A DNA stretch of 37,422 nt, from NCBI GenBank assembly GCA_020351185.1, contig CP070729.1, positions 986,915 through 1,024,336 on the forward strand. The letters are read 5' to 3'. A program made the position numbers and the translations under genes. Position 1 is the first letter of the stretch; every line of letters starts with the position of its first letter. Below, one piece after another: positions 5,302-19,399 of this stretch. The stretch comes from Dehalococcoidia bacterium. Lineage in GTDB: Bacteria > Chloroflexota > Dehalococcoidia > Dehalococcoidales > G020351185. A model generated the notes under the pieces. It had not been told where the DNA came from and did not search any database. It saw nothing but the letters and a program-made list of their open reading frames with translations.

Positions 5302-6181
5302 ACTGCTCTGAAGTTTGTTTATCGCCAGCCAACACCTCTTTCAGCGCAACGACAGCAACCTCAACTTGATCTTCCTCGGGCTCCCTAGTGGTCAGACTCT
5401 GTAACCACAGGCCTGGAGTCATTAACGTCCGGATAAGAATATTATCCATATGTCGTGCTCCGAATTGGGTTGCCTCATATCCCAGAGCAGCAATGACAGG
5501 AATAAGGAAAATCCGTGACAGCACCATGAGCCATACTGCTTGACGGCCAACGAGGGCGAAAACAACAATAGCTATAATCAGCACAGCAAGAAGAAAAGCG
5601 GTACCACAACGAGTATGCGCGGTGCTATAATCTTTAATGGCTCTGGCATGAAGTTCAACCCCGTCCTCATAGGCGTTTACTGTCTTATGCTCGGCACCAT
5701 GGTAACCAAAGGTACGCTTTATGTCTGGTAGGAGTGATATTAGCTTTAGGTATATAAGGAAGATAAACAGTCGTATTGCACCTTCTACAAGGTGAAAGAG
5801 AATTGATGATTCTATATAAGGATCAAGCATTTTTGCTAGGAAAAGGGGTGCTACGAAAAACAGACTGATAGCCAGCGCAAAAGAAAATGCCAAAATTAAC
5901 CAAGTTGATCTGCCAGATACGTCTTCGCCTTCCTCCTCAAGTGCTATGTTGGCGGAGTAGAATAGGCTATTTATGCCTAGAATGAGTGATTCAATTAAGA
6001 CAATAATGCCACGCGAGAATGGGATTTGTCTTAAACGACCTGTATAGATTTTGGATCGTGGCTTGCTATTAATAACTATTTCGCCATTCGGGCGGCGGAC
6101 AGCGGTAGCACTTGTTTTTTTGCCCAGCATCATCACTCCCTCCATAACCGCTTGCCCTCCGTAACGGAATTCTCTTGCCAT
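5279..6181 (-). CDS. DUF1385 (YqhQ-like) membrane protein
   Basis: 300 aa. YGGQAVMEGVMM at the N-terminus, GYHGAEHKTVNAYE, and several TM helices. Its 3' end overlaps hisI convergently by 23 nt. Confidence 0.8.
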   Translation of the reverse strand: MAREFRYGGQAVMEGVMMLGKKTSATAVRRPNGEIVINSKPRSKIYTGRLRQIPFSRGIIVLIESLILGINSLFYSANIALEEEGEDVSGRSTWLILAFSFALAISLFFVAPLFLAKMLDPYIESSILFHLVEGAIRLFIFLIYLKLISLLPDIKRTFGYHGAEHKTVNAYEDGVELHARAIKDYSTAHTRCGTAFLLAVLIIAIVVFALVGRQAVWLMVLSRIFLIPVIAALGYEATQFGARHMDNILIRTLMTPGLWLQSLTTREPEEDQVEVAVVALKEVLAGDKQTSEQSTVEVSR

Positions 6182-11238: not shown

Positions 11239-12573
11239 TTGAGAATGGATATGTTTGAGCATCAGTTTGAAAAGAAAAGATTGAGAGAAGCACCTCTGGC
11301 GGCACGAATGAGACCAACCGGCTTTGACGAGTTCGTTGGACAGGAACGCCTTGTGGGTAAACGGCGGGTTTTAAGACGGGCAATTGAATCAGGCAAGCTA
11401 CCATCAATTGTCCTGTGGGGACCGACAGGCTCCGGTAAAACTACACTCGCATTTATTATCGCTAGTGTTACCGAATCCCATTTTAGCCCGGTCTCTGCTG
11501 TTAGTGCTGGTGTTGCTGACTTGAGACGCATAATTGAGCAAACGACAGAGAATCGCAAGATACAACATAAGAGAACCATACTCTTTATAGATGAAATTCA
11601 CCGCTTCAACAAAGCACAACAGGATGCTATCCTACCCTTTGTTGAAGATGGCACTATAACGCTTATCGGGGCAACGACTGAAAATCCCTCTTTTGAGGTT
11701 ATTTCGCCACTACTTTCACGTTGTCAGGTTTTCAGATTAAATCCCCTTACTGCAGACGAACTCCGCATAATAATATTCAGAGCGTTGAAGGATGGATTGC
11801 GTGGCCTCGGTGCTTTGAAGGTAGAGCTAGCTGATGATGCTATGGAACATATTATTGCAATGTCAAATAATGACGCCAGAGCTGCCCTTAATATACTTGA
11901 AATGGCAGCACTAACCACGCCTGAAGGTGACAACGGTAAACGCTGTATTTCGTTGGAAACAATTGAAGAAGCCATTCAACAACGCTCCTTAACCTATGAC
12001 AAAGGTGGTGAACAGCACTTTGATACAATATCCGCCTTGCATAAATCAATGCGAGGTTCAGATCCAGATGCATCTATCTATTGGTTAGCGCGTATGCTGG
12101 AAGCAGGAGAAAATCCCCTATATATCGCCCGCCGTCTAGTGCGTTTTGCGTCTGAGGATGTCGGCATGGCTGATCCTCAGGCACTGGTAGTAGCTATGGC
12201 GGCACAGCAGGCAGTTCATTTTATCGGTATACCGGAAGGCAATCTGGCTCTAGCAGAGGCGGCGGTCTATCTTGCAACTGCCCCCAAGAGCAATTCCCTT
12301 TATCGAGCTTATTCACAAGTACAGGAAGAATTAAAAAAGGGCTCGGCTGAAGAGGTACCGCTGCACCTGAGGAATCCAGTAACATCTCTGATGAAGAATG
12401 TTGGCTATGGCAAAGGTTATAAATATGCCCATGACTACCCTGGTCATTTTGTAAAACAGCAAAATCTCCCCGATTCACTTAAGGATAAACGCTTCTATGC
12501 GCCTGGTGATCACGGCTACGAGAGACAAGTTGCCAAACGTCTGAAAAATTGGTGGCACGGAAGAGATTCTTAG
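11239..12573 (+). CDS. rarA: Replication-associated recombination protein A (AAA+ ATPase)
   Basis: 444 aa. [15 protein letters not shown], Walker [29 protein letters not shown], and the MgsA C-terminal domain ([26 protein letters not shown]). Confidence 0.92.
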
Positions 12574-12627: not shown

Positions 12628-12657
12628 TTGACACCCCTTCCTGCCGGTGTTTATACT
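12628..12657 (+). promoter_or_regulatory. Putative sigma-70-type promoter for the tRNA gene
   Basis: TTGACA at 12628-12633, a 17-18 nt spacer, then TTATACT at 12651-12657. About 20 nt upstream of the mature tRNA 5' end. Confidence 0.5.
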
Positions 12658-12675: not shown

Positions 12676-12750
12676 CGCGGGGTGGAGCAGTGGAAGCTCG
12701 TCGGGCTCATAACCCGAAGGTCGTTGGTTCGAATCCAACCCCCGCTACCA
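12676..12750 (+). tRNA. tRNA-Met (CAT), initiator type, CCA encoded
   Basis: Hand-folded cloverleaf: acceptor CGCGGGG/CCCCGCT, D-stem GAGC/GCTC, anticodon arm TCGGG-CTCATAA-CCCGA, variable loop AGGTC, T-arm GTTGG-TTCGAAT-CCAAC, then ACCA. Initiator hallmarks are three G:C pairs closing the anticodon stem, A11:U24, and an unpaired 1:72 position (C1/U72). Near-identical in layout to E. coli tRNA-fMet as I recall it. Confidence 0.9.
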
Positions 12751-12764
12751 ATTATTGACGTCAT

Positions 12765-12784
12765 GAGGCGAAAGCCTCTTTTTT
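12765..12784 (+). terminator. Short terminator hairpin after the tRNA
   Basis: GAGGC-GAAA-GCCTC followed by TTTTTT (12779-12784). Confidence 0.5.
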
Positions 12785-12793
12785 ATTAGCGGT

Positions 12794-13006
12794 ATGAAAA
12801 TCATCTGTTACTGTTACAAATACACCGAAGCTGATATCAAAGACGATTTATTGAAAAACAATGGGCGTTCATCTATCCTGGAGCAGATAGTCGAAGAGGC
12901 GAGGAACAAGACGTGCCAGTGTGACATCTACCACCCCGAAAAAAGATGATGCCTTGAGGATATCCGCCGTGTAGTGGACAAATATAAAAAGAGTAAAAGG
13001 TTTTAA
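12794..13006 (+). CDS. Small Cys-rich BFD-like ([2Fe-2S]-type) protein with in-frame TGA; candidate selenoprotein (or recent nonsense pseudogene)
   Basis: Not in the ORF track. ATG at 12794. Translation: MKIICYCYKYTEADIKDDLLKNNGRSSILEQIVEEARNKTCQCDIYHPEKR-TGA(12947-12949)-CLEDIRRVVDKYKKSKRF-TAA. CxC...CxC...(U)C layout. The frame stays open and sensible for 18 codons after the TGA. Confidence 0.55.
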
Positions 13007-13007
13007 T

Positions 13008-13048
13008 GAAGGTCGTTAATTCGAATCAAACCCCCACTATTAATTATT
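13008..13048 (+). repeat. Degenerate copy 1 of the tRNA-fMet 3' end (att-like remnant)
   Basis: gaaggtcgttaattcgaatcaaacccccactattaattatt compared with tRNA 12716-12756 gaaggtcgttggttcgaatccaacccccgctaccaattatt. 35 of 41 positions are identical by manual alignment, including 6 nt 3' of the CCA. Confidence 0.75.
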
Positions 13049-13058
13049 TGAAAGTGGA

Positions 13059-13088
13059 ACACAGGTGAGAGAACCTGTGTCTTTTATT
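13059..13088 (+). terminator. Terminator-like hairpin following repeat copy 1
   Basis: ACACAGGT-GAGAGA-ACCTGTGT (8-bp stem) followed by CTTTTATT. Lies between the convergent genes ending at 13006 (+) and 13090 (-). Confidence 0.6.
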
Positions 13089-13089
13089 A

Positions 13090-13554
13090 CTAGAAGCATC
13101 CCAGCTGGCATCCGCTAATTTTGAGACCCTGAACGCTTGCTTCATTTGCAATAGTAATTGGTTTTAGCTTAAATTCTTGACCTAGTTCAAATATTTTTGT
13201 ACATGTAAGCTGATTGCTTTCTGCTAATGTCATAAGCATTGTAACAATTTCACCATCTAGACATTTATTTGCTGGATTATCATAAGTAGTCTTCTCTTTC
13301 TTGTAAAAACCAATCTGGCAATCGGTTATCCGGATACCTAATTTATCAGCAATTTCTCCTACGGCAATTTTAGTAACCCTCGCTTCCTTTGCTATATCCC
13401 ATGCAACGGGACAAGAAATATACCCATCTCCTAATGCAGCCTTAACCATGGATTCTAAATGGGCAAGCTCTTCTTTCGAGAGGTTGTCGGGGTTATTTGG
13501 TATTTGGATTCTTGCACTCTTTTTTACTCTACTGGCATCATTAAAATCTCTCAT
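13090..13554 (-). CDS. Hypothetical protein with two tandem Cys-bracketed HTH-like modules
   Basis: 154 aa. AGGAG lies 5 nt upstream of the ATG. Internal duplication: ISCPVAWDIAKEARVTKIAVGEIADKLGIRITDCQIGFY and LTCTKIFELGQEFKLKPITIANEASVQGLKISGCQLGCF. I do not recognise the family. Confidence 0.6.
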   Translation of the reverse strand: MRDFNDASRVKKSARIQIPNNPDNLSKEELAHLESMVKAALGDGYISCPVAWDIAKEARVTKIAVGEIADKLGIRITDCQIGFYKKEKTTYDNPANKCLDGEIVTMLMTLAESNQLTCTKIFELGQEFKLKPITIANEASVQGLKISGCQLGCF

Positions 13555-13663
13555 AATAACTCCTACAATTTATATAATAAGATTATATTACATAGCTAAT
13601 TAAATTGTATTTCATCAAGTGTATATAAGACTTTCTCGCTACAGGAAACAGCCTAGTAGTATT

Positions 13664-13696
13664 GTTGGTTCGAATCAAACCCACGCTACAAATTAT
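13664..13696 (+). repeat. Degenerate copy 2 of the tRNA-fMet 3' end
   Basis: gttggttcgaatcaaacccacgctacaaattat compared with tRNA 12723-12755. 30 of 33 identical by manual alignment. Followed by a hairpin plus T-run at about 13709-13739. Confidence 0.75.
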
Positions 13697-13762
13697 AGAA
13701 GTTGAGATCGCAGGTCTAGAGGCCTGTGTTATTTTTTTATCCAATATTTTAGGAAACCAAGA

Positions 13763-14290
13763 TTAGTACTTCTGCCATCCCATACCTTGTATTAAACCCC
13801 GTATATAAGACATCTGACCTGCATGCAAGAGACTGTCTTCTAAAACACTTATGATACGTACACCCACAGTCGGTAGCGGTTGAAACCAGGGTTCGTTAAG
13901 CTCTTTATCTAAGTCAGATTTAGATAAGGTTGTAAAGTATTTCATTGAGCGCCCCGAAACCGCTTTTTGGTAATCAAGCAAAATTTGTATATCTGGTGAT
14001 GTAAAATCTTTTAATTGTTCCGTATTATGACCAAATCCGATATCCCCTGGATCAGCTGGCCGGTTAAACCTTGTATACCATTTGTCTTTAATCCATAGTT
14101 GTTCCACTCCTATTAAAGAAGAAATTTGGGCATCCTGTTGACGTGTGAGATGCCAGGCAAGCCAACCTATACTATTGCTATCATCCTGAGGTTGCCAGTT
14201 GAGGTCATCATGTTTTAATCCTGTCAGAGTATGTTTCATGAATTCGTAAATTCGTGAGTAACCATCCTCGATTAAACCTTGCCACTCCAT
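13763..14290 (-). CDS. DinB-family protein
   Basis: 175 aa. Four-helix-bundle DinB pattern: L.GL..DDLNWQP....NSIGWLAWHLTR..D, and a C-terminal HAGQMSYIRGL. Confidence 0.75.
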   Translation of the reverse strand: MEWQGLIEDGYSRIYEFMKHTLTGLKHDDLNWQPQDDSNSIGWLAWHLTRQQDAQISSLIGVEQLWIKDKWYTRFNRPADPGDIGFGHNTEQLKDFTSPDIQILLDYQKAVSGRSMKYFTTLSKSDLDKELNEPWFQPLPTVGVRIISVLEDSLLHAGQMSYIRGLIQGMGWQKY

Positions 14291-14410
14291 ACGGTACCTT
14301 CCTTCGCATAAAAATATCGCTACAAAGAGTAGTGTGAACAGTTAAAATGATTGAACCTTGTGGATTCTTTTTACCATAGAGCTTACTTGAACCTCGGCTG
14401 CTAAACTTAA

Positions 14411-14438
14411 TTGGTTAGAATTCAATCCTCGGCACCAA
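14411..14438 (+). repeat. Possible third, most diverged copy of the tRNA 3' end
   Basis: ttggttagaattcaatcctcggcaccaa compared with ttggttcgaatccaacccccgctaccaa. Weaker similarity may extend upstream to about 14392 (tcggctgctaaactta versus tcgggctcataacccga). Confidence 0.4.
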
Positions 14439-14468
14439 AAGGATTACTTAGGATGATATCCAGAAACA

Positions 14469-14987
14469 TCATTGTTTAAAGATGCCTTCATTAGAGAATT
14501 TCTTGTTGCCCCTAAGGAAAACTATTGAGAAACGACCACCTTGTCTAAGCTTAGAAATCGCAATTTCAAAGTCAGATGCATTAGCAATATTCTGCATGTT
14601 TAATTCTGTAATAATATCATGAGGTTTCAAGCCTGTTCTTTGAGCGGTTGAATCTGGTTTAACACTACCGATGTATGCACCAAACACGGTACCTATTCCT
14701 TGTTGAGTAGTTATTTTACTAGCATCTGTTATAGAAACACCAAAAGAGATCTTTTGCTTTTGGTTGAGGGCTTTTTTCAATTTTACTTGATCGAAGCCAA
14801 CGATTGTTTGATCATTGATTATGGTAACCGGCACTCCCATTTTACCGGTTCTATTGATAAGTTCTCTTGCTGCGCAAGGATCGGCAGAAACATCACGTTT
14901 AGTGTAATCTATTTTTTGTTGCGAAAGGAAATCTTCCACCATATTACAGTAGGGTCATGTGGGGCTTGTGAAAATGGTTACATCCAA
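14469..14987 (-). CDS. Glutaredoxin-like (UPYC) - PDZ fusion protein with in-frame TGA; candidate selenoprotein
   Basis: The track ORF (14469-14942) starts after the active site. The same frame extends upstream to TTG 14987-14985, 8 nt after AGGAG (15000-14996). Translation: (M)DVTIFTSPT-TGA(14957-14955)-PYCNMVEDFLSQQKIDYTKRDV...GVPVTIINDQTIVGFD. The TGA sits exactly at the first Cys of the CPYC glutaredoxin motif. The C-terminal half has a PDZ-like pattern (GAYIGSVKPDSTAQRTGLKPHDIITELNMQNI...FSIVFLRGNKKF). Confidence 0.65.
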
Positions 14988-15235
14988 TTAAGTAACTCCT
15001 GCGTTATTTTTTAATAAAAGTATATTATAAAACTTGAACAAAAGATACATCGATAAGTATTTGCCATTATTGGATGAATAAAACCAGAAGTTCTAGGTTT
15101 ACCGCTAAACCGAGATCACTTTTTCGGATGATACTACAGATTAATACCATATGATCGATGTGATTTAAGTCATATACAATCAGCCATAAACTTAATAAAA
15201 TAATGTTAAGTTAAAAAAAGAAAGGAGACGTTGTT

Positions 15236-15724
15236 ATGAGCTTAATTATAAGAAGAAATGGTGGAGAGAGAGCTTTGGTACCGTTATTTAGTGCGCCGAG
15301 TGTGCTTGAGGAATTTGATGCACTTGCAAGGAAAACTTGGGATTACTGGCCATTTTCAACGATTGAAAATGTAATGCCAACGATTGATGTTTATGAGGAG
15401 AAAGGCGAGCTAGTAGTAAAGGCGGAATTACCTGGTATCAGTAAGGAGGACTTGGATGTAACCCTTGAGGGTGATAAGCTAACCATAAAAGCCGAGAAGC
15501 AGGAAGAGATAGCTGAGGAAACTACCCTACACAAACGCGAGCGCTATTATGGGCAGTATTTCCGTTCCGTTACACTACCTTATCCGGTTTTGGAAAATGG
15601 AATATCGGCTACAATGGAAAATGGTGTTCTTGAATTAAGGTTTACCAAGGCTGAAGAGGCGAGGGCTAAAAAGATCGAAATTAAGGGTCAGTTAACAAAA
15701 GGAAAAAAGAGAGCTAAGAAGTAA
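15236..15724 (+). CDS. Hsp20/alpha-crystallin small heat-shock protein
   Basis: 162 aa. AAAGGAGA RBS. Alpha-crystallin domain PTIDVYEEKGELVVKAELPGISKEDLDVTLEGDKLTIKAEK...ENGVLELRF. Confidence 0.9.
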   Translation: MSLIIRRNGGERALVPLFSAPSVLEEFDALARKTWDYWPFSTIENVMPTIDVYEEKGELVVKAELPGISKEDLDVTLEGDKLTIKAEKQEEIAEETTLHKRERYYGQYFRSVTLPYPVLENGISATMENGVLELRFTKAEEARAKKIEIKGQLTKGKKRAKK

Positions 15725-15747
15725 GGTTGAATAATTGGGAGATTGCC

Positions 15748-15780
15748 AAAGGCTGGGTTTCGGCCCAGCCTTTTGATTTC
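15748..15780 (+). terminator. Rho-independent terminator after hsp20
   Basis: AAAGGCTGGG-TTTCGG-CCCAGCCTTT followed by TGATTT. Confidence 0.7.
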
Positions 15781-15980
15781 CGAATATATATTGATGTCCT
15801 GTAACATTCTCACGAGGAATGTAAAATTTGTAGATATGGGGATAGTTTATCCGAGACGAATAATTATCGAAAACGATAAAGCGAAATCACAGAAAAATGT
15901 GATTTCTATTACATCCGTAAATGCATATCAATATTATATTACTTTAATATAGTTTATATATATTAACAGGAGTCAGGGTA

Positions 15981-16160
15981 ATGCCTTTATATGAGTATAG
16001 TTGTAATAAATGCGATCATATATTTGAAAAATTTAAAGAAACTGGTAGTAGTGCTGCAAGCGTAGTATGTCCAAAGTATGGTGTAAAGAATTCAAAGCGG
16101 ATTTATTCAATATTCAACAGCTTAAGTCAAAATTACATTCCACGGTTTAGTGGTGGTTGA
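15981..16160 (+). CDS. FmdB-family zinc-ribbon protein with a degenerate second Cys pair
   Basis: Not in the track (59 aa). AGGAG lies 9 nt upstream. MPLYEYSCNKCDHIFE...VVCPKYG. The family consensus is MP.YEY.C..C...FE....CP.CG; here the last Cys is Tyr (TAT). Confidence 0.6.
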   Translation: MPLYEYSCNKCDHIFEKFKETGSSAASVVCPKYGVKNSKRIYSIFNSLSQNYIPRFSGG

Positions 16161-16356
16161 GGGTTATAAAAATGAGGCAGTTTGCTTCGAATGCTAAGTC
16201 TATGAGTGGAAATTACTTCTATGAATGGAGTAGTCTTTATCGACAGGAATATGTGTTGGAATTAATAACGATTACAATATCGAGAAATAAATAGCTAATG
16301 AAGTCATACAAGAGGCAATAAGATTCAGTTGAGCACCAGCTTTATCAACGATGTAA

Positions 16357-16542
16357 TGGATAAGTTATTATCCATTGATGATATTAATAATCGGGCTATG
16401 TTTGATGGTTATGGAATATTCTACGAAGAGGTTTTGTTTGCTATAATCATGAAGGAGATGCTTTTTTAAAATGAATGAAACAAATCTAACATGTATGAAG
16501 AAGCTACGAGCAGAAGATTTCAACATGGTATATCGTACTAGG
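16357..16542 (+). pseudogene. Decayed TfoX/Sxy N-terminal-domain gene
   Basis: One frame reads MDKLLSIDDINNRAMFDGYGIFYEEVLFAIIMKEMLF-TAA-NE-TGA-NKSNMYEEATSRRFQHGISY-TAG. This matches the TfoX_N pattern (..MFGGYG.FY.G..FA.I....L.FK....N...YEEAGS..F) but has three in-frame stops. Confidence 0.55.
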
Positions 16543-16687
16543 AAGTATCAGCAAAAATTCTAGGCGACGGGAATCGATTGAGTAAGTGAGCTGAAATATC
16601 ATTAGATATAGCAGCAAGAAAAGCCATTAAAAACCGATGATAGCAAAACCAAATTACTAGTATATTATTACACATCATTAAAGTGTT

Positions 16688-17017
16688 ATGAGTAAAAATA
16701 ATCCTAGGCTTTTCCGTGAGGGCAAAACCATTGAGGTAATGATAGCTATTTATTGTCGGAAAAACCATTTTACTGACCCATTATGCCAACAATGTGAAGA
16801 ACTCCTAAAGTATGCCCACAAAATGCTTGATAGATGTCCTTTTGGTGAGAACAAAACTACCTGTGTAAAATGTCCGATACATTGCTATAAACCCCAGGCA
16901 AGACAAAAGATAAGAGAGGTAATGCGTTATTCTGGACCGCGAATGATATATCGCCATCCGTTAATAGCAATACGACATCTTGTAGACGGGTGGAGAACAA
17001 AGACAATTAAGAATTAA
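16688..17017 (+). CDS. Nitrous-oxide-stimulated promoter (YgbA-like) family protein
   Basis: 109 aa. Cys pattern C..C......C.F...K..C..C..HCYKP..R..IREVMRYSGPRM...HP, typical of this family. Confidence 0.75.
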   Translation: MSKNNPRLFREGKTIEVMIAIYCRKNHFTDPLCQQCEELLKYAHKMLDRCPFGENKTTCVKCPIHCYKPQARQKIREVMRYSGPRMIYRHPLIAIRHLVDGWRTKTIKN

Positions 17018-17028
17018 AGAAAATAGTT

Positions 17029-17604
17029 ATGGAACAGGATAAGGTGCATTATTTCAAAGACCGCTATCAATGGTACCAATGGTTGTTAAAAAACCACAAT
17101 ACCACTCATGAAATATGGTTGCTGCATTACAAGAAGAGTAGCAACAGAGTCGGTATGACGTATGACGAGGCTGTCGAAGAAGCAATTTGCTTTGGGTGGA
17201 TAGACGGTAAGTTAAAAAGCATCGATAACGAGACGTTTCTTCTTAGATATTCACCGCGAAAGGCTAGGAGCGTTTGGTCGATGTTAAACAAAGAAAGGGC
17301 AGAGAAGCTCATAAAAATGGGTAAGATGACAAGTGCCGGACTGTTAAAAATAGAAGAAGCGAAAAGAAATGGATATTGGAACAAGGCCTATACAAATAAA
17401 AAGAAGGACAAATTGCCTGATGACCTCAAACAGGCTCTATTAAAGGATTCTAAAACGTGGAGTAATTTTAGTAATTTTGCTAACAGTTATCGCAATACAT
17501 ATATAGGTTGGGTAGAAAGTGCTAAGACGGAGGAGACAAGAAAAAGACGTATTGCTGAAGTCGTAAGGCGTTCTCTGATAAACAAAAAACCTGGAATTGT
17601 ATAG
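17029..17604 (+). CDS. YdeI/OmpD-associated family protein
   Basis: 191 aa. WLLKNH....IWLLHYKK......MTYDEAVEEAICFGWIDG......D...FLLRYSPRK..S.WS..N, plus the C-terminal ...YIGWVESAKTEETRKRRI. Confidence 0.75.
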   Translation: MEQDKVHYFKDRYQWYQWLLKNHNTTHEIWLLHYKKSSNRVGMTYDEAVEEAICFGWIDGKLKSIDNETFLLRYSPRKARSVWSMLNKERAEKLIKMGKMTSAGLLKIEEAKRNGYWNKAYTNKKKDKLPDDLKQALLKDSKTWSNFSNFANSYRNTYIGWVESAKTEETRKRRIAEVVRRSLINKKPGIV

Positions 17605-17625
17605 CCAAAGGAAAAATTGATATTT

Positions 17626-18387
17626 TTACCATATCTTAGGTATTAGGGCTTTACGCTCTGGTGGGTAATCAGTAAAATTATTTCGATACCACAGGTGATG
17701 AGCCCATGCCCTAGGACTAAGATTGGCGAATGTCCAGAATGCAAATGCTAACCCAGGTAGCGACCATGTTGCCACTGCCCAACCACTCCATATCATAATT
17801 TCACCGAAATAATTGGGGCATGATATAAAGCGAAAGAGTCCCGAATTTGATATTTTGTAATCGCACGAATCAGATCTACGAAGCTGCCGCAGAGAATTAT
17901 CCGCCTGACGGTTTATAATAAACCCGACGATAAAAAGGACAAGACCGGTTATAAATCGCGGGTCGGTGAGCCATTCATTTGTATAGCCAGAAGAGAAGGT
18001 AAAGATATAACGACCGTTTAAATATCCATTTACCGTATTAAAAAATAAGGCGAAAATAATAATTATTACAGGTATCCGGTTGGCTGAGGTTTGCAATCCG
18101 AAGGGATAGATGAAGGACCTATGAATATAATGTAATAGCCAAAGGGTGAGGAACACCAGTATAGTCGGTGTGATTTTATTGTCACCGAAAACAAATAATA
18201 TAAAGAATACAATAGGAGCTGGGGCTTCCATAACAATCCAGCTTAGTTTGTTATTGATAGCGGGTCCCCAGCCACGGCGTGAATGCCGACCATAAGGAGC
18301 GGCAACAAAGAATAGAGTACCGAATACGGCTAATGCCAATACAAACCAACTGATAAGAAGTGTGTTGAAAAAGGTATGTTCACTCAT
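17626..18387 (-). CDS. 3-oxo-5-alpha-steroid 4-dehydrogenase (SRD5A/DUF1295-like) family membrane reductase
   Basis: 253 aa, polytopic. C-terminal CPNYFGEIMIWSGWA...NLSPRAWAHHLWYRNNFTDYPPERKALIPKIW matches the steroid 5-alpha-reductase C-terminal domain. Confidence 0.75.
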   Translation of the reverse strand: MSEHTFFNTLLISWFVLALAVFGTLFFVAAPYGRHSRRGWGPAINNKLSWIVMEAPAPIVFFILFVFGDNKITPTILVFLTLWLLHYIHRSFIYPFGLQTSANRIPVIIIIFALFFNTVNGYLNGRYIFTFSSGYTNEWLTDPRFITGLVLFIVGFIINRQADNSLRQLRRSDSCDYKISNSGLFRFISCPNYFGEIMIWSGWAVATWSLPGLAFAFWTFANLSPRAWAHHLWYRNNFTDYPPERKALIPKIW

Positions 18388-19399
18388 GATTTACCCAATA
18401 TATTTTATCTTCTATGGCTTTATTATATCCGTTTTGCCCGAACCAGGAGACGGAATCTCTAATGGACTGTATTGCAGGTCGGGTAGTAAAACCAAGCTGC
18501 AGTCGGGCTTTCTCGGAGCTTATTAAAGAATTGCTACGGAGCACATCTATAGAATAGGTAGTAAAACGAGGTTTCCTTCTGGTCAGTCTGTAGTAAATGG
18601 GCGAAAAATAAGCTGCAATTCTAGCTAACCATAGAGGTATTTTTATATTAGGTGCCTTCACTCCGCTTATTTTCTGTAAGATTTTCATCAATCGGTAGAC
18701 GCTAATTTGTTCCCCAGAAAAAATATACCTCTCACCGCTTTGTCCTTTCTCACCAGCAAGGATAATGCCCTTTGCCACATCACGCACATCCACATAATCG
18801 TAAGTACCATCTATATAGGCTTTCAAGTTACCATTGATGAAGTCTAAGATGAGCTGACCCATCTCAGATATACGAAAATCATAGGGACCGATAATTCCCG
18901 TAGGGTGGACTATCACTGCATCCAACCCTCGCTTCACTCCTTCCAATATCACCATTGTAGCTCGGGCTTTGCTTCTACCGTAATTTTCAGTCACCCTCCT
19001 GGGATTACATGAAAGTGATTCATCGAAAATGGTGCCATGCGGCGGCTCTTCAATGGCATGAATAGAGCTTATATAAACGAGTCTCCTAACGCCTACCCGC
19101 ATGCAAGCTTCTACAACGTTTTGAGTACCAGTTACATTAACCTGCTCTACAAGTTTATCCCTACCTGGTAGAATCGATATGATACCGGCTAGATGGTATA
19201 CCATTCTGCTACCTTTGAAAGCTTGTATGAGAGTGTTAAGGTTGCGTACATCACCTTCAGCTATTTCTACCTTGAGTCCTTTAAGGGGATTCAAGTCTTC
19301 TGTAGGTAGCGTTAACGCCTTAACTTTCAAGCCCCTTTTTAAAAGCTGGCGGACGAGGACATTTCCAATATGACCGGTAGCGCCGGTAACTACAACCAT
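18380..19399 (-). CDS. NAD(P)-dependent epimerase/dehydratase (extended SDR; 3-beta-HSD / dihydroflavonol-reductase-like)
   Basis: 339 aa. VVVTGATGHIGNVLVRQL Rossmann motif and a YGRSK catalytic motif. Overlaps the downstream reductase gene by 8 nt. Confidence 0.8.
   Translation of the reverse strand: MVVVTGATGHIGNVLVRQLLKRGLKVKALTLPTEDLNPLKGLKVEIAEGDVRNLNTLIQAFKGSRMVYHLAGIISILPGRDKLVEQVNVTGTQNVVEACMRVGVRRLVYISSIHAIEEPPHGTIFDESLSCNPRRVTENYGRSKARATMVILEGVKRGLDAVIVHPTGIIGPYDFRISEMGQLILDFINGNLKAYIDGTYDYVDVRDVAKGIILAGEKGQSGERYIFSGEQISVYRLMKILQKISGVKAPNIKIPLWLARIAAYFSPIYYRLTRRKPRFTTYSIDVLRSNSLISSEKARLQLGFTTRPAIQSIRDSVSWFGQNGYNKAIEDKIYWVNHE

Follow-up and report, generated by a model that had tools for sequence, protein, structure and literature searches.

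A probable additive genomic island of one-gene units at the initiator tRNA of a Dehalococcoidia bacterium

We analyzed a 37,422-nt stretch of DNA (hereafter, the window) from a Dehalococcoidia bacterium (Chloroflexota; Dehalococcoidales; G020351185), corresponding to positions 986,915 to 1,024,336 of contig CP070729.1 in assembly GCA_020351185.1. In this window, the gene for the initiator tRNA (tRNA-fMet) is followed by a series of partial copies of its own 3′ end, with small genes between them. We consider the region at 12751-17625 (window positions throughout) to be, quite probably, an "additive" genomic island that was built through serial insertion at the 3′ end of this tRNA by a site-specific recombinase, whose action we infer. 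The locus displays direct repeats, terminators, low GC content, sites that are empty in relatives, conserved cassette boundaries, and a rapid turnover of the DNA beside the tRNA.

ARAGORN identified tRNA-Met(CAT) as the sole tRNA of the window, in agreement with Rfam. The gene displays the initiator features, read off its sequence, of a GGG/CCC anticodon stem and a C1-U72 mismatch, and a promoter-like site lies ahead of it at 12628-12657. The 41-mer spanning the variable loop to 6 nt beyond the CCA recurs three times, always on the + strand, as revealed by an ungapped scan and blastn, and a separate repeat search recovered the same four-copy family (100, 85, 78, and 61% identity). The same-orientation recurrence of the tRNA 3′ end, which the initial annotation had pointed out from the letters, was thus confirmed for copies 1 and 2, with the same positions and match counts (Table 1).

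The significance of the copies was assessed with 300 Markov-1 randomized windows that were scanned on both strands. Their best score never exceeded 27/41, demonstrating that copies 1 and 2 are not chance matches and that their similarity holds against shuffled sequence. A score of at least 25/41, which is that of copy 3, was reached in 12% of the randomized windows (whole window, both strands); therefore, copy 3 is not significant alone, and its figure of 0.55% for a search limited to the + strand of the island reflects a post hoc restriction. The weaker third copy that had been placed at 14411-14438 does not, accordingly, stand on its score, but it is kept at the orthologous spot of a related locus, L082, between the DinB-like and Grx-PDZ genes. 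The L082 counterpart is more tRNA-like, with the T-arm motif TTGGTTCGAAT intact, and copy 3 is probably a real, old relic. All six differences between copy 1 and the tRNA are changes of G/C to A/T, and in the T-stems of copies 1 and 2 no change is compensated, every one again being G/C to A/T, which argues for decay and not for a conserved tRNA-like fold. Rfam, run at a permissive threshold over the window, returned the tRNA alone, with no pseudo-tRNA and no family of the selenocysteine insertion sequence (SECIS). An extra "copy" at 14303-14326, returned by the repeat search (find_repeats), was judged to be a chance match, as it comprises 24 nt at 75% in the untranslated region just 5′ of the DinB-like start codon. 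A further tRNA 3′ copy, present upstream of YgbA_NO in the related locus L083, was not found in the window.

RarA, which ends approximately 100 nt before the tRNA, was used as a synteny anchor to compare the locus among related genomes. Among species-representative genomes, the best RarA relatives had at most 69% identity, and RarA never adjoined a tRNA in the 13 loci checked. A large protein collection contained many RarA homologues at 75-90%, the contigs of which were fetched, and a RarA scan of JGI metagenomes gave 78% and 75% as the best among the matches listed, with one locus (L087) being informative. The fetched RarA contigs were all Dehalococcoidia/Chloroflexota metagenome-assembled genomes or metagenome contigs, and all carry tRNA-fMet right after RarA. 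In nine relatives (RarA 75-90%; loci are denoted here by L numbers), the DNA directly behind the tRNA was different in every one.

Presence/absence differences from the window in L082 and L084 have exact junctions at the repeats. L082 has an intact tRNA, immediately after which come ATTATTGAAGTTGAGACATAAGC... and the 3′ end of the DinB-like gene; the true tRNA 3′ end and flank of L082 are orthologous to copy 2 and its flank ATTATAGAAGTTGAGATCGCAGG... in the window. Relative to L082, window positions 12751-13690 are an insertion bounded by a direct repeat, and cassettes A and B are absent from L082. In L084, the hairpin GCACAGGC..GCCTGTGC and the Cys-rich gene come next after an intact tRNA. 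This segment is the orthologue of the copy-1 flank, and cassette A is absent; behind the Cys-rich gene lie a perfect 32-nt tRNA 3′ copy and another hairpin. The Cys-rich cassette (approximately 650 bp) is homologous from repeat to repeat in the window, L084, and L085, and diverges immediately outside, although it occupies array position 2 in the window, 1 in L084, and 3 in L085. Other one-gene units were also observed: the cupin and ICMT-like methyltransferase genes of L085 are each bounded by tRNA 3′ copies, and in L179-L181 the only gene separating the tRNA from a near-perfect copy is FKBP. The relatives are therefore not invariant at this interval, and differ from the window exactly at the repeat boundaries.

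The segment common to all copies extends from the T-loop (TTCGAATCC...) to a few nucleotides past the CCA. The 5′ reach of the copies is approximately 24 nt for the cupin and methyltransferase units, approximately 33 nt for the Cys-rich and FKBP units, and 41 nt for the BFD-like unit, and is the same for the Cys-rich cassette in three genomes. Judging from these alignments, such a cassette-specific reach would be expected if every inserted element has its own copy of the attP type. L084, L085, and L179 contain perfect repeat cores of 27-32 nt, a length typical of tRNA attachment (att) cores. The copies include at least 6 nt of genomic sequence beyond the CCA, indicating that their source was DNA rather than mature tRNA; on the same ground, we ruled out a retro-element or an origin through tRNA-primed reverse transcription. 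A profile of the repeat unit over 2.3 Mb of fetched loci matched solely downstream of the tRNA-fMet of relatives, apart from one hit in an Acidobacteria locus (L077), and the unit does not belong to a dispersed family of repeats.

Both copy 1 and copy 2 have a hairpin and T-run behind them, as had been noted initially and as the terminator scan verified. The copy-1 hairpin is homologous to the hairpin directly 3′ of the L084 tRNA and to those at the cassette boundaries of L085, where the same hairpin type follows each tRNA 3′ copy. The copy-2 hairpin is best read as a displaced tRNA terminator, because there is no gene on the + strand ahead of it whose transcription it could end. At least seven cassette boundaries have a common spacer and a hairpin of the form GCRCAGGY-loop-RYCTGYGC with a T-run, and six of the 13 predicted pairs stay paired through a two-sided change in at least one sequence. 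From its sequence, this boundary hairpin looks like the tRNA-fMet terminator of the lineage, carried by the inserted elements and thereby keeping the tRNA terminated.

The island directly abuts the intact tRNA-fMet, starting at 12751, and its GC content is 36.8%, compared with 43.4% in the left flank and 42.2% in the right flank. The array had been described as beginning at the tRNA, which stands; its far end does not, as the island reaches 17625, well past the coordinate originally given. Both flanks are core genome, comprising an amidase, CoaE, radical-SAM, Memo/AMMECR1, and RarA on the left, and the steroid-5-alpha-reductase-like gene (steroid_dh), an epimerase, a glycerate-kinase-like gene, the shikimate operon, and ribosomal proteins on the right. 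The steroid_dh/epimerase pair also closes the variable region of L166, and steroid_dh closes that of L083, where the locus ends within the gene. L166 has tRNA 3′ copies at 5741 and 10426, of which the latter, the outermost, overlaps the steroid_dh stop codon; therefore, the ancestral state was likely tRNA-fMet back to back with steroid_dh/epimerase. The part of the island beyond copy 3 is patchily shared with L082 and L083 and wholly absent from L166. Since the content differs in every relative, we regard the arrangement of RarA, tRNA-fMet, variable DNA, and steroid_dh (with the epimerase where the contig reaches it) as a conserved hotspot.

Table 1. Features of the window around the initiator tRNA.
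Feature	Position	Strand	Evidence or remark
Left core flank: RarA/MgsA replication-associated recombination ATPase	11239-12573	+	75-90% identical homologues 5′ of the same tRNA in nine relatives
tRNA-Met(CAT), array head	12676-12750	+	ARAGORN; Rfam tRNA 64.6 bits
Reference repeat, 3′ part of tRNA-fMet, attL equivalent	12716-12756	+	41 nt
Terminator hairpin GAGGC-GAAA-GCCTC and T-run, left end of cassette A	12765-12788 (hairpin 12765-12778)	+	Terminator scan
Cassette A gene: small BFD-like/CopZ-N-terminal-like 2Fe-2S protein	12794-13007	+	Pfam Fer2_BFD (weak)
Copy 1 of the tRNA 3′ end, putative displaced attR-like relic	13008-13048	+	35/41
Terminator hairpin ACACAGGT..ACCTGTGT and T-run, left end of cassette B	13059-13090 (hairpin 13059-13080)	+	Terminator scan
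Cassette B gene: 154-aa Cys-rich protein	13090-13554	-	No Pfam/NCBIfam model
Copy 2 of the tRNA 3′ end	13657-13697	+	32/41; blastn core 13664-13696, 30/33
Terminator hairpin CGCAGG..CCTGTG and T-run, 3′ of copy 2	13709-13738 (hairpin 13709-13728)	+	Terminator scan
Cassette C gene: DinB_2/mycothiol-transferase-like protein	13763-14290	-	Pfam; common to L082
Copy 3 of the tRNA 3′ end, weak	14403-14443	+	25/41
Putatively older part of the island, no detectable repeats	14444-17625	.	GC 36.1%
Grx-PDZ gene	14469-14987	-	Pfam; in-frame TGA 14955-14957
Hsp20 gene	15236-15724	+	Pfam
Zn-ribbon gene	15981-16160	+	Pfam
YgbA_NO gene	16688-17017	+	Pfam
YdeI/OmdA gene	17029-17604	+	Pfam
Right core flank: steroid-5-alpha-reductase-like membrane protein (steroid_dh) and NAD-dependent epimerase	17626-19399	-	Pfam

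Under the explanation that we favor, DNA segments, mostly single genes, would have been inserted one after another by recombination within the segment of the tRNA from the T-loop to the 3′ end. Each incoming segment would have supplied its own copy of the tRNA 3′ part and a terminator hairpin, so that neither the tRNA gene nor its termination was disrupted. The earlier 3′ end and its terminator would have been displaced downstream, where they may now be decaying as copies 1, 2, and 3, and the order of the array would therefore reflect age: the BFD-like cassette would be the newest, followed by the Cys-rich cassette, the DinB-like cassette, and the remainder without repeats. Everything between tRNA-fMet and steroid_dh would have been added since the ancestral back-to-back state, and deletions between repeats probably also trim the array. 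The segments would have been joined by a site-specific recombinase, most likely a tyrosine recombinase with its crossover within or close to the T-loop, that may be encoded elsewhere in the genome or on a transient element, or may have been lost. In each of cassettes A, B, and C, a lone gene unrelated to mobility lies between att-type repeats, without recombinase or transfer genes, and such single-gene units may represent cis-mobilizable modules that are flanked by att sites and lack an integrase, or relics thereof.

Several results weigh against this explanation. No recombinase or integrase domain was detected by Pfam in the island genes and 20 flanking open reading frames of the window, in line with the initial annotation, which had seen no integrase there; the remaining left-flank reading frames match housekeeping genes of L082 by order and length. 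Nor did an integrase accompany the same tRNA in the relatives, as no recombinase gene was found within the 2-10 kb downstream of the tRNA inspected per locus in the nine related arrays. Phages and proviruses of IMG/VR contained no partial copy of the site: a 32-mer gave no match, and a 28-mer matched solely complete tRNA-Met genes of large phages, which are not att sites. Public reads yielded no joints that skip a cassette, in a population present at 2-5x with contigs of 150-800 nt, which is too shallow for detecting excision, circles, or alternative alleles. The extent of decay does not follow distance strictly: copy 1 has 85% identity, and copy 2 has 91% over a shorter core. Finally, deletion between repeats explains the empty sites of the relatives equally well, and such a site does not by itself separate it from insertion. 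Overall, the serial site-specific integration with att duplication that had been proposed for this locus is supported by the significance of the repeats and by the differences of L082 and L084 at the repeat boundaries, with the caveats that the recombinase remains inferential and deletion an alternative to insertion.

The reads and the related arrays gave two further observations. In one sediment metagenome run (X6), a single 151-nt contig of depth 3 joins window positions 12923-12996 to 12715-12753. This contig, from a related strain, runs from the 3′ end of the BFD gene through 10 nt into a tRNA 3′ copy in good condition, beyond which it no longer resembles the window; in that strain, the array context of the BFD cassette may thus be different. 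At 1515-2533 of L084, just past the perfect repeat, lie two HTH_17/MerR_1 proteins of 68-69 aa that are excisionase-like, and a similar one is present in L085. These, the only mobility-flavored genes seen near any array, may point to an excisionase.

We also observed serial partial copies of the 3′ end of a second tRNA(CAT), GGTTCGAATCCAATCGCTGCCACTTTT, at 3031-4213 of L176 and 295-1316 of L177 (repeats on the - strand). Their intervals contain one gene each, namely an acetyltransferase, a 120-aa protein, and a BFD-like TGA gene; no full second tRNA(CAT) gene was found on the short contigs carrying its 3′ copies. A copy of the same 3′ end lies at 20390-20430 of L081, 9 kb into the tRNA-fMet island. 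It had been considered as a tRNA-fMet relic, which we rejected upon recognizing it as the 3′ part of the different tRNA(CAT).

An alternative that we regard as rather unlikely is an integron-like capture platform that is still active, in which the tRNA 3′ end serves as a fixed docking site for single-gene circles. Each circle would carry a unit of approximately 75 nt (tRNA 3′ end, spacer, and hairpin), and a dedicated recombinase encoded elsewhere would insert, excise, and reshuffle the cassettes individually, with the initiator tRNA and at least one other tRNA(CAT) gene acting as array heads. The cassettes are indeed one gene long (approximately 260-750 bp), and the Cys-rich cassette has identical boundaries at three array positions; the repeats that are still perfect in L084 and L085 are suggestive of events in the recent past, and the second tRNA(CAT) 3′ end bounds one-gene intervals in L176 and L177. 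The homologous hairpin at the boundaries, with its two-sided pair changes, fits such a unit, but it resembles an ordinary rho-independent tRNA terminator and could be conserved for that alone. Moreover, the Cys-rich proteins are only 70-75% identical across the cassette copies, which does not support recent movement, and several relatives contain multi-gene operons instead of single genes. The genes occur in both orientations, unlike those of integron cassettes, and the two on the minus strand have approximately 110 nt upstream inside the cassette, leaving room for their own promoters. No recombinase adjoins any array, and insertion solely at the tRNA combined with deletions between repeats also explains the patterns.

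The lack of an integrase near any array could likewise mean that no dedicated recombinase was involved, and that homologous recombination between repeats of approximately 30-80 nt (tRNA 3′ end and terminator) loops out, re-inserts, and deletes the segments. This would accord with duplicated homology that extends past the tRNA into the spacer and hairpin for approximately 75 nt, more than a minimal att core. We nevertheless consider it improbable: perfect identity covers 24-41 nt, close to or under the length needed for efficient recombination by RecA, the insertion always regenerates an intact tRNA, and the copies have 5′ limits at the T-loop or near the variable loop, and at the anticodon loop for the second tRNA type. 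Integrases that target tRNA genes classically cross over in the T-loop or the anticodon loop, and the short identity segments together with these limits lead us to favor a site-specific recombinase that acts in trans or was lost. There is hardly any likelihood, in our judgment, that the copies arose by chance or from decayed tandem duplications of the whole tRNA gene, or that they are functional tRNA-like RNA elements. Copy 3 by itself lies within chance for the whole window, and the hairpins remain foldable, but copies 1 and 2 score above all 300 randomizations, the 5′ half of the tRNA has left no trace ahead of any copy, and Rfam finds one tRNA. The uncompensated T-stem changes toward A/T and the coincidence of presence/absence differences between genomes with the copies point the same way.

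The initial annotation had assigned exactly one small gene to each interval between the repeats, which we verified: each contains one credible gene, encoding a BFD-like protein with an in-frame TGA, a Cys-rich protein, and a DinB-like protein, respectively. The BFD-like gene, in cassette A (full extent 12751-13007), matched the NCBIfam models CopZ_Nterm_CC (4.8e-12) and CU "(seleno)protein", both below the curated cut-offs. Its in-frame TGA lies at 12947-12949. The same position is TGA in all three related loci for which the DNA was read, and the five database homologues of the protein all stop at or read through it. The frame continues after the TGA with a conserved C[LI]x[DE][VI]RRVVD motif, and a conserved hairpin, GUCCGC-CGUGUU-GUGGAC, follows the UGA by 14-15 nt. 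Considering this conservation, the TGA probably encodes selenocysteine. The Grx-PDZ gene, farther into the island, starts at a TTG (14985-14987) upstream of the listed ATG, and its TGA falls in the motif T-U-P-Y-C, the position of the classic CPYC glutaredoxin site. Grx-PDZ of L082 has the same TTG/TGA arrangement, and the upstream changes are synonymous. Both genes are likely selenoprotein genes that were shortened by ordinary gene callers.

The Cys-rich protein of cassette B had no matches indicating a function in Pfam, NCBIfam, or PDB sequence searches, and no viral relatives in an IMG/VR scan. Its family is small, consisting of 44 clusters, nearly all of exactly 154 aa, and the protein displays an apparent internal duplication in which C-x30-C-Q-[IL]-G occurs twice. 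In another Chloroflexi lineage (L168-L174), a homologue is an ordinary chromosomal gene beside Fer4_5, flavodoxin, NifU, and TsoX, neighbors hinting that its role may be in Fe-S or redox processes; Geotalea has relatives of 49% identity. The DinB_2 protein of cassette C scored 170.2 bits with the NCBIfam model MST_Rv0443, against a cut-off of 170.

The genes that follow the tRNA in the relatives are diverse. In order of RarA identity, the variable DNA comprises HAD and radical-SAM genes, ArsA/D/R, and RimK in L081 (90%); a defense-type ATPase (NsnB/AriA-like) and a 142-aa gene in L178 (87%); DinB-like, Grx-PDZ, Hsp20, and Zn-ribbon genes in L082 (86%); an FKBP isomerase and then others in L179-L181 (85%); a 122-aa gene, a racemase, lactamase_B, and an ABC transporter, then YgbA_NO, OmdA, heliorhodopsin, and steroid_dh in L083 (84%); a Cys-rich gene, two HTH_17 genes, and peptidase M73 in L084 (84%); a 69-aa gene with CapK, ATPase genes, TauE, and GH10, then steroid_dh and the epimerase in L166 (82%); and an ABC transporter and an NYN protein in L087 (75%). 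In L085, a cupin, an ICMT-like methyltransferase, and a Cys-rich gene are each followed by a copy of the tRNA 3′ end, and DUF1295 comes after the last. The ABC ATPase of L178 (6585-8294; PADLOC NsnB/AriA-like, E 3e-49) and its 142-aa partner are the first genes after tRNA-fMet, suggesting that the hotspot also takes up candidate antiphage systems. The heliorhodopsin gene of L083 lies at 14075-14848 in the variable region, between the OmdA-like gene and steroid_dh.

Collectively, these data provide a nucleotide-resolved record of accessory-gene gain in an uncultured, small-genome Dehalococcoidia lineage from sediments. A single hotspot carries different cargo in each relative, including redox/thiol genes, chaperones, transporters, and a defense-type ATPase. 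The conserved boundary unit of tRNA 3′ end and hairpin offers a practical search key for the flexible gene pool in metagenomes. If the single-gene units are individually mobile, this would be a cassette system working without an adjacent integrase. If an integron-like platform were in fact at work, it would provide small genomes with a cassette-level exchange of redox and stress genes, including selenoprotein genes.

The closest precedent within the same bacterial class is that of the ssrA islands of Dehalococcoides, tandem low-GC islands bounded by direct repeats of the ssrA 3′ end (McMurdie et al. 2011, PMC3146451), and the initial annotation had referred to their tandem 3′-end repeats correctly. 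Their insertion point is stated to be in the T-loop of the transfer-messenger RNA (tmRNA), and some islands without integration genes were discussed as cis-mobilizable elements joined by accretion (PMC3146451). The present locus resembles them in its tandem low-GC DNA 3′ of one small-RNA gene, its 3′-end direct repeats, and its T-loop insertion. By contrast, its target is the initiator tRNA and not tmRNA, its units are single genes of 0.26-0.75 kb compared with islands of at least 10 kb, and its cargo consists of redox and stress genes instead of rdhA. The ssrA islands are further defined by integration at ssrA and a DsiB/DsiA serine-recombinase module beside attL (PMC3146451), whereas no such module was found in any array here. 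Our findings thus extend the ssrA-island picture to a tRNA site and to one-gene units.

In Prochlorococcus, the islands that harbor tycheposons form by integration at a few tRNA genes, including tRNA-Met(CAT); newcomers push older elements inward, and the islands are strewn with partial tRNAs and remnants in degradation (Hackl et al., bioRxiv 10.1101/2020.12.28.424599). Tycheposons have a tyrosine or large serine recombinase as their hallmark, and many have a replication module (bioRxiv 10.1101/2020.12.28.424599). Partial-tRNA flanks at a tRNA target are likewise present here, but the hallmark genes are absent, and the units are much smaller, most of them with a common conserved terminator hairpin. 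With integrons, the locus shares short, mostly single-gene units, boundaries that contain hairpins and resemble recombination sites, and an order that varies between genomes. Integrons have intI beside attI and a Pc promoter, and their mostly promoterless cassettes, ending in attC, share one orientation. Here, by contrast, neither intI (in the 37-kb window) nor attI was found, the array head is a tRNA gene, the boundaries are tRNA-derived direct repeats with a terminator and not attC, and one gene lies on the + strand and two on the - strand. As the defining recombinase modules are absent, the locus is not an integron, an ssrA island, or a tycheposon.

The same tell-tale repeats were described for the "additive" islands of Alteromonas at tRNA/tmRNA genes, with tRNA-Met among them, in which nearly every strain has a different combination of cassettes (Lopez-Perez and Rodriguez-Valera, PMC4898812). 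Those islands were described in Gammaproteobacteria, and their cassettes are larger. To our knowledge, additive islands have not been described for Dehalococcoidia or for an initiator tRNA with one-gene units. For all three systems (PMC3146451, bioRxiv 10.1101/2020.12.28.424599, and PMC4898812), an architecture like that of the present locus was attributed to serial integration, in favor of our explanation. The locus therefore belongs to a known kind, the tRNA-linked additive island. It is unusual in its integrase-less one-gene units of 0.26-0.75 kb, the fixed boundaries that these keep at different array positions, the conserved terminator-containing boundary, and the parallel set at a second tRNA(CAT) in L176 and L177.

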